DNA of 64,000 bases, taken from Patescibacteria group bacterium. Its GTDB lineage: Bacteria; Patescibacteriota; Minisyncoccia; UBA6257; UBA9933. Position 1 is the stretch's first letter. The number at the start of each line of letters is the position of its first letter. Made by a program: the position numbers and the translations under genes. This document shows positions 55,217-60,295 of the stretch, piece by piece. Under the pieces are notes generated by a model that did not search any database, was not told the DNA's origin, and worked only from the letters and a program-made list of their open reading frames with translations. The stretch spans positions 51,798 through 115,797 of the forward strand of contig JBBTRV010000004.1 in assembly GCA_038065035.1 (NCBI GenBank). Direction: 5' to 3'.

Positions 55217-55534
55217 ATGGAAGCAAAAGACCAGAATTTTCTTGAGTTCTTGATTAAATCCATTGTTGACCATCCTGACGAGGTTAAAGTTGAAAGGAAA
55301 GTTGACGAAATGGGAGTTCTTTTGACTCTTCACGTGCATCCGACCGATATGGCTCAGATTATCGGCAGGCGCGGCGCAACGGCTCAGTCTATCCGATCGC
55401 TTTTAAAAATCGTCGGAATCAAAAATAACGCCAGAGTTAATTTGAAAATCGCCGAGCCGGAAGGTTCAATGAGAGAACAAAGAGAGCCAAGGTCATCCGT
55501 TGACCAGGCAGTAGAAGGAATCAATAATTACTAA
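55217..55534 (+). CDS. KH-domain RNA-binding protein (YlqC/UPF0109-like)
   Basis: GRRGATAQSIRSL KH GXXG loop. Canonical position after rpsP. Confidence 0.8.
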   Translation: MEAKDQNFLEFLIKSIVDHPDEVKVERKVDEMGVLLTLHVHPTDMAQIIGRRGATAQSIRSLLKIVGIKNNARVNLKIAEPEGSMREQREPRSSVDQAVEGINNY

Positions 55535-55572
55535 ACCAAAAATTACGAAGTGGGACTTCGTAAATTCGTAAA

Positions 55573-55600
55573 ATCCCCCGCATTGCGGGGGATTTTTAAT
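55573..55600 (+). terminator. Rho-independent terminator after the KH gene, preceded by a second hairpin at 55543-55563
   Basis: atcccccgc-att-gcgggggat followed by ttttaatt. Confidence 0.7.
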
Positions 55601-55732
55601 TGAAAAACAAGCGTAAATATGGTAAAAAATGAGTAATGATGAAACAAGAATCATTGCGGCAAATTGAAAAATTAGTGGAGAAATACGAGAATTTTCAGAG
55701 ATTTTATTACGTTATAATGTTATAATATAAAT

Positions 55733-57193
55733 ATGAATCCAGTCATAAAAAAAGAAAATGGAGTTGTTTTTACTCCTGAATGGGTAGTGGATTTTATGGT
55801 TAGTGAGATATTAAACAGTAAAAAAATCACAGGAAAAGAAAAAATACTTGATGCGGGTTGCGGCGAAGGAATTTTTGCGACCATCGCGGCGCAAAAATTC
55901 GCAAAATTATCAGGAAAAAAGATAGAAAAAGTCATAGAAGAAAACATTTATTTTATTGATATAACAGAAGAATATACAAGAAAAACTAAACAAAATTTAC
56001 AAAAATTATCAAAAAATAAAATTATAAAATATAATGCGATAATTGATGATTTTTGTTTTCATGATTTTGATGAAAAATTTGATTTTATAATCGGTAATCC
56101 GCCTTATGTTCGCATACAAAATTTAAATGAAAGGAAGGAACAGTTGCAAAAAAAATATATAACTGCTTCCAGCGGGTCAATTGATTTATATTTTTGTTTT
56201 TTTGAGCAAGCATTAAAATTATTAAATAAAGATGGCAAAATTGCTTTTATTACTCCAAATTCTCATTTTTATTCGGCAGCGGGAAAAAATCTGCGCAATT
56301 TATTAATGTTTCATTTGGCAAAAATAATAAATTTCGATTATTTTCAGATTTTCAAAGATGCCACTACATATACGGCGATTACATTTTTACAAAAAGAAGA
56401 TGGTGTTAGTTTTTCATACGCGGAAAATTTTAAGAATAATTTTAAAAATCTTAAATATAAAAAAATATCTATTAAAAATATGAAATCTGAAAGGTGGGAA
56501 TTTTTCGATGAAAAATATCTAGATAAAATTGTTAAACTTAATAAGGAATATTCTACGCTTCTGGAAATAGCGGACATTCATTATGGAATAGCTACGCTTA
56601 AAGACGATATTTATATTTTTTCGCCTGAAAAAGATTGTAATAATTATTTTTATTTTAGCGATTTTAAGATTGAAAAAAACATTTGTGTTCCGATTATTAA
56701 AGCATCAACATATAAAGGCGAAAATCAAAACTTTTTTTTGATTTTTCCTTATGAAAATGAAAAAATAATACCAAAAAATATTTTTCAAAAAAATTATCCT
56801 GAAACATATAGATATTTATTATATTATCGCGATATTTTGGAAATGAGAGATAAGGGCGGGGGTAAAAATTATGAGGAATTTTACGCTTTTGGCAGGAATC
56901 AAGGGTTAAAAACCAGTTTTGGTAAAAAAATCATAACTAGTACTATGAATATAGCACCGCGCTTTTACGTGGTTGAAAATAAAGAAACAAGTTTTTATGC
57001 CGGCTATTGTATTAAACCTCGAAATAATATAAATATTTATGAATTATGCGAAGCGTTGAATTCTGATTTAATGAAAGAATATATTAATTCTGTTTCAAAA
57101 AGTTATCGTGGAGGATATAAATCATATGCAAAAAGTTTTTTAAAAGATTTTGCGCATCCCCAATTTTATAAAAATCAACCAGTATTATTTTAA
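55733..57193 (+). CDS. N6-adenine (gamma-class, TaqI/Eco57I-like) DNA methyltransferase with a C-terminal target-recognition region
   Basis: GVVFTPEWVVDFMV motif. LDAGCGEGIF (motif I) before IIGNPPY (motif IV), which is the gamma-class order. Very AT-rich. Confidence 0.75.
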   Translation: MNPVIKKENGVVFTPEWVVDFMVSEILNSKKITGKEKILDAGCGEGIFATIAAQKFAKLSGKKIEKVIEENIYFIDITEEYTRKTKQNLQKLSKNKIIKYNAIIDDFCFHDFDEKFDFIIGNPPYVRIQNLNERKEQLQKKYITASSGSIDLYFCFFEQALKLLNKDGKIAFITPNSHFYSAAGKNLRNLLMFHLAKIINFDYFQIFKDATTYTAITFLQKEDGVSFSYAENFKNNFKNLKYKKISIKNMKSERWEFFDEKYLDKIVKLNKEYSTLLEIADIHYGIATLKDDIYIFSPEKDCNNYFYFSDFKIEKNICVPIIKASTYKGENQNFFLIFPYENEKIIPKNIFQKNYPETYRYLLYYRDILEMRDKGGGKNYEEFYAFGRNQGLKTSFGKKIITSTMNIAPRFYVVENKETSFYAGYCIKPRNNINIYELCEALNSDLMKEYINSVSKSYRGGYKSYAKSFLKDFAHPQFYKNQPVLF

Positions 57194-57204
57194 CTAAAAA
57201 TATT

Positions 57205-57891
57205 ATGGATAATCTGCAAAATAAATTTATGAAAGCGATTAACGCCTCTTTTGCGGCTTATAATAAGAAAGGCGGCGCAAGAAGCAATAAAAAGTTAATT
57301 CCAATTCATAAATTTTTATCAGAAATAATTTTAGAAAAGCTTAAAAATAGATATTCAATAAAATCTTTGGGAATCGGCGACGGTAAAGAAGCGACAATAG
57401 ACGGAAAATATTACCCAAAAGACCTTGATGTGGCTATATTTAAAAATAATAAAATTGTAGCGACTATCAGTTTTAAATTTATCACCTCAAATTATAAACA
57501 GAACGCAAACAATTATTTTGAAGGCCTTATGGGAGAAACTGCTAATATAAGGCGACAGAATATCGGATTTGCTCATTTTTTAGTGCTTCGCGGACATACG
57601 CCGTATTATTCAAAAAATAAAGGTAATTTGCGAGGGAAACAAAAAGGAATAGAAATTATATCTGAAAAACATCTTCAAAAATACATAAAGTTATTTAATG
57701 ATATGGATTTCCCTCATAAGCCGGATTTAATAGGAATTTGTATTTTAGATTTTGATAAAAATAAAAAAGCGAAATTTGTTAATCTAAATGATTTTGATTT
57801 TTCTGTTGAAACGAGACAATTGCTTAAAAATGAATTTTCTTTAAATAATTTTTTAGATAAATTTATACATCTTATAAATTTAAAAAGTTAA
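57205..57891 (+). CDS. Hypothetical protein, a candidate cognate restriction endonuclease or specificity component
   Basis: Position immediately 3' of the MTase. Weak PD-DxK-like LDVAIF...ISFKF. No confident fold. Confidence 0.3.
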   Translation: MDNLQNKFMKAINASFAAYNKKGGARSNKKLIPIHKFLSEIILEKLKNRYSIKSLGIGDGKEATIDGKYYPKDLDVAIFKNNKIVATISFKFITSNYKQNANNYFEGLMGETANIRRQNIGFAHFLVLRGHTPYYSKNKGNLRGKQKGIEIISEKHLQKYIKLFNDMDFPHKPDLIGICILDFDKNKKAKFVNLNDFDFSVETRQLLKNEFSLNNFLDKFIHLINLKS

Positions 57892-58030
57892 AAAATTAGA
57901 CCAAATTTTAGACCAAGAAGAATATAAAGAATTAAAATCAGAAATTGATAAAACCAATAAAGAAATAGACGAAAAAGTTTATGAATTATATGGATTGACG
58001 GAGGAGGAGGTTAAAATCATTGAAAAATAA
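57884..58030 (+). pseudogene. Start-less 48-codon fragment encoding the conserved C-terminal tail of type IIG/BREX-PglX/TaqI-like N6-MTases
   Basis: KVKKLDQILDQEEYKELKSEIDKTNKEIDEKVYELYGLTEEEVKIIEK*. It is in the +1 frame relative to the upstream ORF across an A-rich run. Confidence 0.4.
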
Positions 58031-58038
58031 TAATTAAA

Positions 58039-58878
58039 ATGGCTAAGAAAAAAGATAAAATTCAAGAAATTATAGAAAGGAGCGGCAATGACCTGCAATT
58101 TCGAATTGTAAATTATTTAGAGAGTCATAAATGGGAAGTCTCTATAAGTCCATATTATAACGATCCATCTACTGGAAAACCGAGAGAAATTGATATTGTG
58201 GCTATTCTCAAATGGTCGATAAAGGATGATTTCGGGCATTTTAAACTGGGTGAATTGGCAATTCGATTATTTGTTGAATGTAAATATATTAAAGACGATG
58301 TCATTTTTTGGTTTAGGCAGAAAAATATGTTATCAGCTATTAAATTAGCTAAAGACAATAATATTTTGTGCGATAAGCAGGATTGTTATCTTAATCAAAA
58401 TAAGGTAAGTCAACATCATTATATAGATAATGTTCAGGTAGCGAAAATAGCGGCTAAAAGCTACAATCGTGACGATATTTTTGAGGCGATGAATCAGTGC
58501 TTGAACGGACTTATCTTTTTTGGGAATAATAGTAATATTTCAACTTCATACCATATTGATTTTCCACTTATAGTGACTAATTCATTTAAAAATATTCACA
58601 AACGTGATCAAAATAACGGATACGTCCAAATTACAGAACCGTTTCAACTCGAAGTTGATTATTCGTATAAACAGACAAGAAGTGATGGAAGAATAACAGA
58701 TGTAACAAAATATTTTTTAATAGATATTATGAGTTTTGATAAACTTGATTCGTTTTTACAAGATTTAGAGAACAGGGACATTAAATTATTTCGAGACAAT
58801 TTGCAATGGGATTTAGAACGTCAGGAAAGACAAAATCGTGAACAATTGAATAATAATTCACATGATCCCTATTATTAA
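58039..58878 (+). CDS. PD-(D/E)xK-fold nuclease-like protein
   Basis: PREIDIVAIL...IRLFVECKY matches the D...ExK core with hydrophobic beta-strands. Confidence 0.5.
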   Translation: MAKKKDKIQEIIERSGNDLQFRIVNYLESHKWEVSISPYYNDPSTGKPREIDIVAILKWSIKDDFGHFKLGELAIRLFVECKYIKDDVIFWFRQKNMLSAIKLAKDNNILCDKQDCYLNQNKVSQHHYIDNVQVAKIAAKSYNRDDIFEAMNQCLNGLIFFGNNSNISTSYHIDFPLIVTNSFKNIHKRDQNNGYVQITEPFQLEVDYSYKQTRSDGRITDVTKYFLIDIMSFDKLDSFLQDLENRDIKLFRDNLQWDLERQERQNREQLNNNSHDPYY

Positions 58879-58963
58879 TAATAACTCCGCGGCGCTAATT
58901 TAGGGGTTTATACAAAAATTCGCTTCGGCGGATTTTTGATTGGAGATATGGTAAAATAAATTT

Positions 58964-59467
58964 ATGGCTTTAAGGGAAAATAATTTTGCGTATATTGATG
59001 GCGCAAATTTATATAAAGGCGTTGAGTCGTCGGCATGGAAACTTGATTATCAGAATTTCAGATCGTGGATGCGTCAAAAATTTGGCGTTACTGACGCGTA
59101 TATATTTATTGGTCTTATTTCAAAGAACGCAGATTTATACACGTCTTTACAATCCAAGGGGTATGAATTGGTATTTAAGGAAATTGTTTACGACGGGTCG
59201 GGGAAAGCAAAAGGTAATTGTGATGCAGATTTGGTGCTCCAAGCCGCAAGAGATTATTACGAAAACCATTCTATGTCCGCTTTGCTTGTTTCAAGCGATG
59301 GGGATTATGCGCCACTCGTTCGTTTCTGGCAAGAAAAGAAAGTCCCTTGCGCTATTATATCTCCTGCGCCTACTGCTAAGTGTTCAATTTTATTAAAACG
59401 GACAGGGGTGCCGATTATATATCTTGAAGACGTGAAGCATAAGTTATCGTTTAGTAATTCAAAATGA
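58964..59467 (+). CDS. NYN-domain (LabA/DUF88-like, PIN-like) putative RNase
   Basis: AYIDGANLY, CDADLV and SSDGDY conserved acidic positions. Confidence 0.65.
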   Translation: MALRENNFAYIDGANLYKGVESSAWKLDYQNFRSWMRQKFGVTDAYIFIGLISKNADLYTSLQSKGYELVFKEIVYDGSGKAKGNCDADLVLQAARDYYENHSMSALLVSSDGDYAPLVRFWQEKKVPCAIISPAPTAKCSILLKRTGVPIIYLEDVKHKLSFSNSK

Positions 59468-59470
59468 AAA

Positions 59471-59515
59471 AGCCCCCGGCACGGACGTATCCGTACAGGG
59501 GTCTTTTTCGTAGTA
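59471..59515 (+). terminator. Rho-independent terminator after the NYN gene
   Basis: cccc-ggcacggacgtatccgtaca-gggg stem followed by tctttttcg. Confidence 0.55.
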
Positions 59516-59578
59516 ATATTATAAATATACCAAGCTATTAGACAAAGTCAATAAGTTTATCCACAAGCAATTTATATT

Positions 59579-60295
59579 ATGCGTTTTAATATTATTACAA
59601 TTTTTCCTCGTATTTTCGATTCGTATTTAAACGAATCAATTTTAAAGCGGGCGCAGAAGAAAAAACTGGTTAATTTTAAAATCCATAATTTGCGTGATTT
59701 TACAAAAGATAAGCATAAAAAAGTTGACGACCGGCCGTTTGGCGGAGGGCCGGGAATGGTGATGCAAATTCAGCCGATTATCAGAGCGGTTGAATTTGCA
59801 AAGTCAAAAGCCAATCCGCCGGCTGGCGGAAAAAAATTAAAAATAGGAGTTATTTTATTTACGCCCGGGGGAAAGCAATTTGATAACAAAATAGCGGCGC
59901 AAATGGCGAAAAATTATAACCAGCTGATTTTAATCTGCGGCCGGTATGAAGGCATTGATGAAAGAGTAAAAAAAGCTATTAAAGATTTAGGATTGAAAGT
60001 GCGGGAAATTTCTATTGGCCCCTATGTTTTGACTGGCGGAGAGCTTCCGGCAATGGTTTTAATTGATTCTGTCTCCCGCCAAATTACCGGCGCGCTTGGC
60101 AATATAAAATCATTAGAAGAAAGACGGTATGGTTTGCCGGTTTACCCCCACACCAAACAAAGTTATGGTGTGGGGGTTTATACCCGGCCGGAAATATTTA
60201 TGCATAAGGGCAAAAAATATAAAACTCCGGAAGTTCTGCTTTCCGGCAATCATAAAAAAATCGATGAATGGCATAAAAATAAAATAAAAAGATAA
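59579..60295 (+). CDS. trmD: tRNA (guanine37-N1)-methyltransferase
   Basis: MRFNIITIFPRIF N-terminus and the FGGGPGMVM motif. Confidence 0.9.
   Translation: MRFNIITIFPRIFDSYLNESILKRAQKKKLVNFKIHNLRDFTKDKHKKVDDRPFGGGPGMVMQIQPIIRAVEFAKSKANPPAGGKKLKIGVILFTPGGKQFDNKIAAQMAKNYNQLILICGRYEGIDERVKKAIKDLGLKVREISIGPYVLTGGELPAMVLIDSVSRQITGALGNIKSLEERRYGLPVYPHTKQSYGVGVYTRPEIFMHKGKKYKTPEVLLSGNHKKIDEWHKNKIKR

Follow-up and report, generated by a model that had tools for sequence, protein, structure and literature searches.

A frame of 48 codons without a start, located at 57884..58030 (+ strand) of a 64,000-nucleotide (nt) window from a Patescibacteria group bacterium (assembly GCA_038065035.1, contig JBBTRV010000004.1), is with high confidence a non-functional 3' remnant of a gene of the Eco57I + TaqI_C type, which lies directly after an intact methylase-endonuclease (M-R) cassette. 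Its parent gene most likely encoded a type IIG restriction-modification (R-M) enzyme of ~900 amino acids (aa). The frame is regarded as a relic because it has no usable start, because no 5' part of the gene is present nearby, because a copy found behind the same cassette in another contig (L001) is broken, and because the tail never occurs on the methylase family of the cassette. A sequence-only reading of this DNA had proposed two explanations for the frame, namely a frameshifted gene of ~275 aa, which could be a separate target-recognition subunit, and a remnant of a decayed second gene, and it is a form of the second that the present analysis favours.

The arrangement described in that reading has been confirmed in the sequence. 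The upstream open reading frame (ORF) of 228 aa ends in ...FLDKFIHLINLKS (...HLINLKS) before its stop, and the frame +1 relative to it is open over 48 codons, from 57884 to a TAA at 58028-58030, with the peptide KVKKLDQILDQEEYKELKSEIDKTNKEIDEKVYELYGLTEEEVKIIEK. Two stops precede it in the same frame, a TAA at 57875-57877 and a TAA at 57881-57883, the latter directly adjoining the first codon. The sole ATG, GTG or TTG in the tail frame is the TTG for Leu of YGLT, which stands only 11 codons ahead of the stop and hence leaves the frame without a usable start codon. Only 0.4% of mononucleotide shuffles of the 147 nt stay open, so the open frame exceeds chance. The 3' end of the 228-aa ORF contains a run of five A residues (A5; 57882..57886, + strand), and the geometry of the proposed single-base slip also holds, as removal of one A from this run gives ...NLKVKKLDQ... 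and a fusion of 275 aa. Rfam returned no match in the tail region, and promoter and terminator signals in it are not above background (promoter-like matches, 33 versus 25 ± 4.6 expected).

The derivation of the 48 codons was elucidated with a profile built from 8 tails and searched exhaustively at E ≤ 1e-3, which recovered 11,313 cluster representatives. In every profile match of 230 aa or longer, the match ends at most 5 residues from the C-terminus of the protein. Both Eco57I and TaqI_C domains are present in all of the ten long matches scanned, with the tail placed C-terminal to TaqI_C, which upholds the earlier claim that such a tail is the hallmark C-terminus of Eco57I/TaqI_C-type proteins. 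Six of these ten (proteins of ~860-960 aa and the 1187-aa P0236) also display faint or weak HSDR_N, MmeI_N or MmeI_hel matches, and this combination with Eco57I and TaqI_C is the type IIG layout. The relic itself corresponds to the helix plus the ...EIDEKVYELYGLTEEE(I/V)KI(I/V)E tail found after the TaqI_C domain. By tblastn (aa) and blastn (nt) it aligns to P0128 (395 aa, cut at the contig end; contig L159) with 79% aa identity (E = 1.9e-14) and 80% nt identity over 156 nt, and to P0134 (958 aa; contig L160) with 64% aa identity (E = 1.3e-12) and 79% nt identity over 180 nt. When the 48-aa tail was used in a word-indexed search, seven tiny ORFs sharing the ...DKEIDEKVYELYGLTEEE core were retrieved and no intact gene; a PDB sequence search with it yielded no more than coiled-coil noise, nothing significant came from Pfam or NCBIfam, and a literature search for the motif LYGLT gave nothing relevant.

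Apart from these codons, nothing of the parent gene is left in the window, and the earlier suggestion that the tail is the remnant of a decayed second methyltransferase or specificity gene is therefore supported by both the similarity and the solitude of the tail. A tblastn search of the window with 25 long matches finds no 5' fragment and, besides the tail, meets only the paralogous methylase domain of the M gene of the cassette at 23-28% identity. No methylase domain exists in the tail frame, which is closed by the stops at 57875 and 57881, and the nearby methylase is a separate complete gene; no TaqI_C domain is present upstream of 57884, where the 228-aa gene has its native 3' end; and neither an N-terminal PD-(D/E)xK nuclease domain nor a start codon for the tail gene was found in the window. 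When compared with type IIG enzymes of the Eco57I/MmeI kind (Pfam Eco57I, PF07669, and TaqI_C, PF12950, with an N-terminal PD-(D/E)xK nuclease; examples are P0134, P0136, P0153 and P0160), the 48 codons align to the extreme C-terminus, that is, to the helix and the ...EIDxxVYxLYGLTxEEIxIVE stretch after TaqI_C, at 64-79% aa and 79-80% nt identity. However, only the last ~5% of the gene is retained here, without nuclease, methylase or TaqI_C part, start or 5' stub. As three of the four defining features of type IIG are absent, the tail is homologous to this family and not a functional member of it. Also considered was a microhomology linking the 3' terminus of the R gene to type IIG-like sequence preceding the tail; the one BLAST alignment that extends to 57846 is matched by chance in shuffles (p = 0.26-0.79), and the candidate was rejected.

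The cassette preceding the relic is intact. Its methylase gene (55733..57193, + strand), identified from Pfam, PADLOC, PDB relatives and the ends of its homologs, encodes a gamma-class N6-adenine methylase of 486 aa with motif I LDAGCGEG and motif IV NPPY. Pfam assigns Eco57I (1.1e-27) and N6_Mtase (2.7e-14) to this protein, PADLOC assigns MTase_II (1.4e-107), and its PDB relatives are M.BseCI, M.TaqI and an adenine-specific DNA methyltransferase (8cxz/7lni); a TaqI_C-like match is weak (1.6e-3, 19.1 bits) and falls under the Pfam cut-off of 26.5. The methylase has the same length as its homologs and shares their end ...QPVLF, and its gene is complete. The possibility that the tail is the lost C-terminus of this methylase was rejected, since the tail is absent in ~60 methylase homologs, the close ones of which terminate at the same residues.

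The second gene of the cassette (57205..57891, + strand) was characterized from its homologs, its neighbourhood and its predicted fold. It adjoins a homolog of the 486-aa methylase in nearly all of 69 genome loci, with the gene orders M>R, R>M or convergent, in Patescibacteria, Bacteroidota, several other bacterial phyla and several archaeal lineages. Its 228-aa product has no Pfam, NCBIfam, PADLOC or PDB sequence match, and its structure model displays a PD-(D/E)xK restriction-endonuclease fold resembling Cfr10I, NgoMIV and NucC, in which the D75 and S89-x-K91 invariant in the family are placed on adjacent strands. These residues appear to match the D...SxK form of the PD-(D/E)xK motif that characterizes the Cfr10I/NgoMIV group. 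The methylase neighbourhood and the endonuclease fold together indicate that, in an intact type II system, the 228-aa protein is the nuclease and not a specificity subunit; it is a predicted complete type II restriction endonuclease and the cognate partner of the methylase. The proposal of a separate target-recognition subunit thus fails, as the predicted fold is neither that of TaqI_C nor that of HsdS: no target-recognition domain (TRD) fold is seen in the structure model of the 228-aa part, and no Methylase_S or TaqI_C domain is found in it with Pfam, NCBIfam or PADLOC. From their sequences, the two genes form a compact, horizontally mobile and intact type II R-M cassette with a conserved TATAAT-containing leader, cleavage being predicted. 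The same architecture, at 55733-57193 and 57205-57891, is that of two-gene type IIP systems, in which a gamma-class N6-methyladenine (m6A) methylase is combined with a Cfr10I/NgoMIV/AgeI-like PD-(D/E)xK endonuclease, and the methylase here has the FxGxG and NPPY motifs; unlike the named systems of this type, the endonuclease family here is without a match in the libraries listed above, and its activity is a prediction.

The 228-aa gene ends natively at 57891, and its +1 geometry with the tail and the A-run are incidental. The protein has 830 homologs in bacteria and archaea, which measure 217-229 aa among the 120 matches listed. Homologs in 158 loci share the terminal helix F(L/I)xKF(I/V)xLxxLKS immediately before the stop, down to 57-60% identity in archaeal contigs, and a YELYGLT tail in frame is carried by none of the 228-aa homologs of these loci. 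The C-terminal helix (residues 213-227) is modelled with a predicted local distance difference test score (pLDDT) of 92-94. DNA homology between cassettes, compared over 13 genome loci, starts at ~55702-55750 (mostly 55716-55733) and ends at ~57891-57897; the sequence 3' of the R stop differs across ~45 genomic contexts, while the ending AAAAAGTTA(A/G) is the same, also in cassettes that have no tail. Three further assemblies (one from NCBI and two from Logan) are 100% identical to the window over 57000/57600-59600, including the A-run and the tail, which shows that this arrangement is not an assembly error.

Relics of the same kind have been located behind the cassette elsewhere, as a tail stub directly 3' of the R stop occurs in 3 of ~45 distinct cassette contexts. 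In the window, the stub has 48 codons, no spacer and an open frame; in L001/L082, a 40-nt spacer is followed by ~42 codons disrupted by one inserted nucleotide and an in-frame stop; and in L089/L091/L097, a 22-nt spacer containing stops is followed by the last 33 codons. No tail remains in ~40 other cassette contexts. The genes 3' of the three stubs differ (a 279-aa gene in the window, a 304-aa ORF in L001 and an ORF of ~265 aa in L089), and no 5' stub was found upstream of M in any of these three contexts. The differences between the window and L001 stubs, counted from the sequences, are mostly non-synonymous, whereas the cassettes, with 89% amino-acid and 83% nucleotide identity, are under clear constraint. 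The presence of the relic 3' of the cassette in three genomic contexts suggests that it may not be the residue of a system once resident at this locus. Of the degraded earlier system proposed in the sequence-only reading, the degraded gene remnant stands, while its residence at this locus appears less probable, the relic seeming to travel with the cassette.

A history of this kind would begin with an ancestor of the cassette lineage inserting into an Eco57I/TaqI_C gene, or beside one, and replacing everything except the 3' end of that gene. The stub would then have accompanied the cassette in part of its horizontal transfers and would have eroded neutrally, to 48 open codons in the window, to a copy with an indel and a stop in L001/L082, to 33 codons in L089/L091/L097, and to nothing in ~40 contexts. 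One ancestral replacement with a hitch-hiking stub appears somewhat more probable than two or three independent insertions, among which an in-situ replacement is included. Several observations weigh against the history of a carried, inert stub. A neighbour-joining (NJ) tree of cassettes, made without bootstrap, pairs L001 with L089, in favour of a stub that travels with the cassette, but places the cassette of the window with the tail-less L085. The three stubs share 75-81% nt identity over 99 nt, which is no better than their identity with tails from unrelated contexts; they are thus not demonstrably each other's closest relatives, and a single origin is not established by them. The three R-to-relic junctions differ as well. 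The 99 shared nt hold no usable phylogenetic signal on single versus multiple origin, and the NJ tree is ambiguous. Moreover, a frame open over 48 codons could be a hint of recent function, and occasional +1 slippage may take place on the A5 run; by a rough estimate, neutral evolution to the same divergence would also spare the frame in ~20% of cases.

Tails of this type are also found as orphans inside contigs: one lies between a PF01555 methylase and DUF3800 (L074-L078), one downstream of an HD-domain gene (L070) and one downstream of a 209-aa ORF whose N-terminus is hydrophobic (L073), while in L071 an 86-aa TRD fragment plus tail precedes an Abi_2 gene. Short tail matches examined numbered 125 (within P0121-P0275), and since many of them visibly include upstream TRD or helix pieces, most short orphan tails are probably the final pieces left by full-length genes that became pseudogenes. 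Between two intact Eco57I/TaqI_C genes, the tail is unusually well conserved, with 84% identity in the last 50 residues and 34% in the rest; the 3' 144 nt of L159 (1035-1178) and L160 (2718-2861) are 86% identical. Codon identity at conserved residues is 74% in the tail and 55% elsewhere (Fisher p = 0.04), a weak hint that the tail module has undergone recombination or gene conversion, but one that is largely explained by amino-acid conservation together with AT-biased codon use. That the ~140-nt tail of Eco57I/TaqI_C (type IIG-like) genes is a portable homology anchor for cassette exchange is an improbable extension of these data. If it were true, a stub-bearing cassette would integrate at resident loci of this gene family by one homologous tail crossover and an illegitimate join upstream, and both the stubs beside the M-R cassette and the abundance of orphan tails in candidate-phyla-radiation (CPR) metagenomes would be explained.

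Among the other explanations of the 48 codons, the two that join them to the endonuclease carry very little weight. A frameshifted gene, whose true product of ~275 aa is interrupted, either through an error of sequencing or assembly or because 1 nt was recently inserted into the A-run, is suggested by the tail frame opening 8 nt before the ORF stop, so that loss of one A fuses the frames. It is nevertheless extremely unlikely, as the homologs share the end residue and none has the tail in frame, the cassette stops at that point with the same AAAAAGTTA(A/G) ending in ~45 other contexts, the A-run is identical in four assemblies, the endonuclease fold is predicted in full, its C-terminal helix being modelled confidently, and the tail belongs to another protein family, in which it follows a TaqI_C domain. 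The fusion is thus rejected on grounds that the sequence-only reading itself had named, the 228-aa ORF having full-length homologs that end at the same residue. The arrangement could alternatively be ascribed to programmed +1 ribosomal frameshifting on the A5 run, yielding a minor endonuclease isoform with a helical tail, since tRNA-Lys could re-pair from AAA to the AAA one base downstream in AAAAA and the tail frame is open. Yet the A-run is conserved in ~40 contexts from which the tail is absent, the L001 copy is broken and lies behind its 40-nt spacer, L089 retains only 33 codons behind a 22-nt spacer with stops, and no stimulatory element was detected (no Rfam match, no terminator or hairpin); this mechanism, too, is given hardly any credence.

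A possible but less favoured account is that an Eco57I/TaqI_C gene, probably of type IIG, once resided between khpA and trmD, perhaps together with the 279-aa gene and the NYN-domain gene that follow the tail, and was replaced in situ by the M-R cassette. The relic stops 8 nt short of the ATG of the 279-aa gene, a spacing typical of an operon, and the locus is a mosaic defence island; the different junctions of the three cassette-linked relics, their lack of clustering and the sister position of the window cassette to a tail-less one are also in its favour. It is opposed by the contexts of the 279-aa homologs examined, which are type III-like R-M and DUF2779 islands and never the neighbourhood of a type IIG-like gene, and by the start of homology of the 279-aa module at ~58023-58051, which indicates a separate module. 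The intact genes with the closest tails are followed by unrelated genes, and the same geometry, a 3' stub after the R stop and no 5' stub, recurs in two other contexts, for which co-transfer is the simpler explanation. Maintenance of the tail under selection, either as a small gene with a function or as a cis element that serves, for instance, as promoter of the 279-aa gene or as recombination anchor, could be argued from the calling of 110 of the 125 short tail matches as complete small ORFs starting with M, from the orphan tails in four unrelated contexts inside contigs, and from the 84% tail identity and the elevated codon identity described above. Such a function is nonetheless quite unlikely, given that the window copy has no usable start codon, that the tail is frameshifted in L001 and absent after most cassettes, that promoter-like matches stay at background, and that many of the short orphans carry the upstream TRD or helix pieces expected of decayed full-length genes. 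The remnant of an Eco57I + TaqI_C gene resembles other decayed R-M remnants in defence islands, being a short 3' stub between two unrelated modules, and differs from them in that it appears to have been carried with the incoming cassette instead of marking a resident gene.

The relic and the cassette are parts of a larger insertion. The gene order, as assigned by Pfam on the flanking genes, is rnc, smc, rpsP, khpA, the 486-aa methylase, the 228-aa ORF, the tail, the 279-aa ORF, the NYN-domain ORF and trmD, with khpA (a KH protein) ending at 55534 and trmD starting at 59579. In a related Patescibacteria contig (L012), the khpA-trmD gap is empty and only 248 nt long, which identifies 55535..59578 (+ strand) as an inserted mosaic of ~4 kb that comprises the M-R cassette, the relic, the 279-aa gene and the NYN gene. 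The 5' leader of the cassette (55700..55732, + strand) has TATAAT-like boxes just before the methylase ATG and is a putative promoter. The motif ...gatttt..tacg(c/t)tataatataaa(c/t)ATG precedes the methylase gene in many otherwise unrelated contexts, and in many loci one or two TATAAT boxes in the AT-rich leader end 5-12 nt upstream of this ATG, which suggests that the 5' untranslated region of the cassette transcript would be very short or absent.

Downstream of the relic, the 279-aa ORF (58039-58878) displays a PD-(D/E)xK-like signature, EIDIVA...ECK, and is without a domain match in library scans. Its protein has 109 homologs in several phyla, the close ones of which are situated at the ends of type III-like R-M operons (PF01555 Mod and ResIII), beside DUF2779 or a serine recombinase; the gene is probably a stand-alone defence or nuclease module. 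The NYN-domain (LabA-like) ORF of 167 aa (58964-59467) has a weak PADLOC NYN match and is not adjacent to homologs of the 279-aa gene in the other genomes whose contexts were examined, so that it counts as one more independent module of the island. Either gene as a partner of the lost gene was considered and rejected, as no link was seen in the contexts of four 279-aa homologs and of two intact tail-bearing genes, the downstream genes of the latter being unrelated to those here.

For annotation, the 228-aa ORF should be described as a complete type II restriction endonuclease and not as a pseudogene or a specificity subunit, and the 48 codons as a gene remnant, so that the locus holds one intact R-M system and not two. 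The remnant itself is an ordinary gene relic of a known kind in a defence island. The 228-aa family, with 830+ sequences, is a widespread endonuclease family that is named by no domain library. The locus further illustrates the turnover of defence cassettes in streamlined genomes, by which 3' stubs are left behind or carried along.

Other traces of cassette turnover were recorded in the loci compared. In L002 (3254-3973; also in L094, L095 and L098), a partial second copy stands directly upstream of a complete M-R cassette, in which methylase codons 1-93 (77% identity) continue into the first ~137 codons of a divergent R gene (42% identity), and looks like a nested or aborted cassette replacement. 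In L153/L154, an R homolog of 41-43% identity with a Bacteroidetes-like C-terminal ending is followed, out of frame, by KKNFLDKFIHLI / KKNYLDKFILL; judged by its translation, this stretch is a stub of a Patescibacteria-type (CPR-type) R C-terminus, another 3' relic of cassette turnover. A GC-rich imperfect hairpin (e.g. TTTTGGGCTCGGGCATTCACCCC...CCCCTCTGCCCTTCGCCCAAAA) is present in the first ~60 nt after the R stop in L099, L101, L105, L112, L117 and L118 and is degenerate in L001 (6688-6730); it has no Rfam match and may be a cassette terminator or a small repeat element. Among the long proteins with the tail, the 1187-aa P0236 (Eco57I/MmeI-type) contains an IS200-like Y1 transposase domain (PF01797, residues 603-705, E = 9e-10) between two methylase-domain stretches. 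In L017 and L133 (Methanothermococcus), the R homolog has an insertion of ~65 aa of GFSxxxIxEIxKxLK-like repeats before the conserved C-terminal helix.

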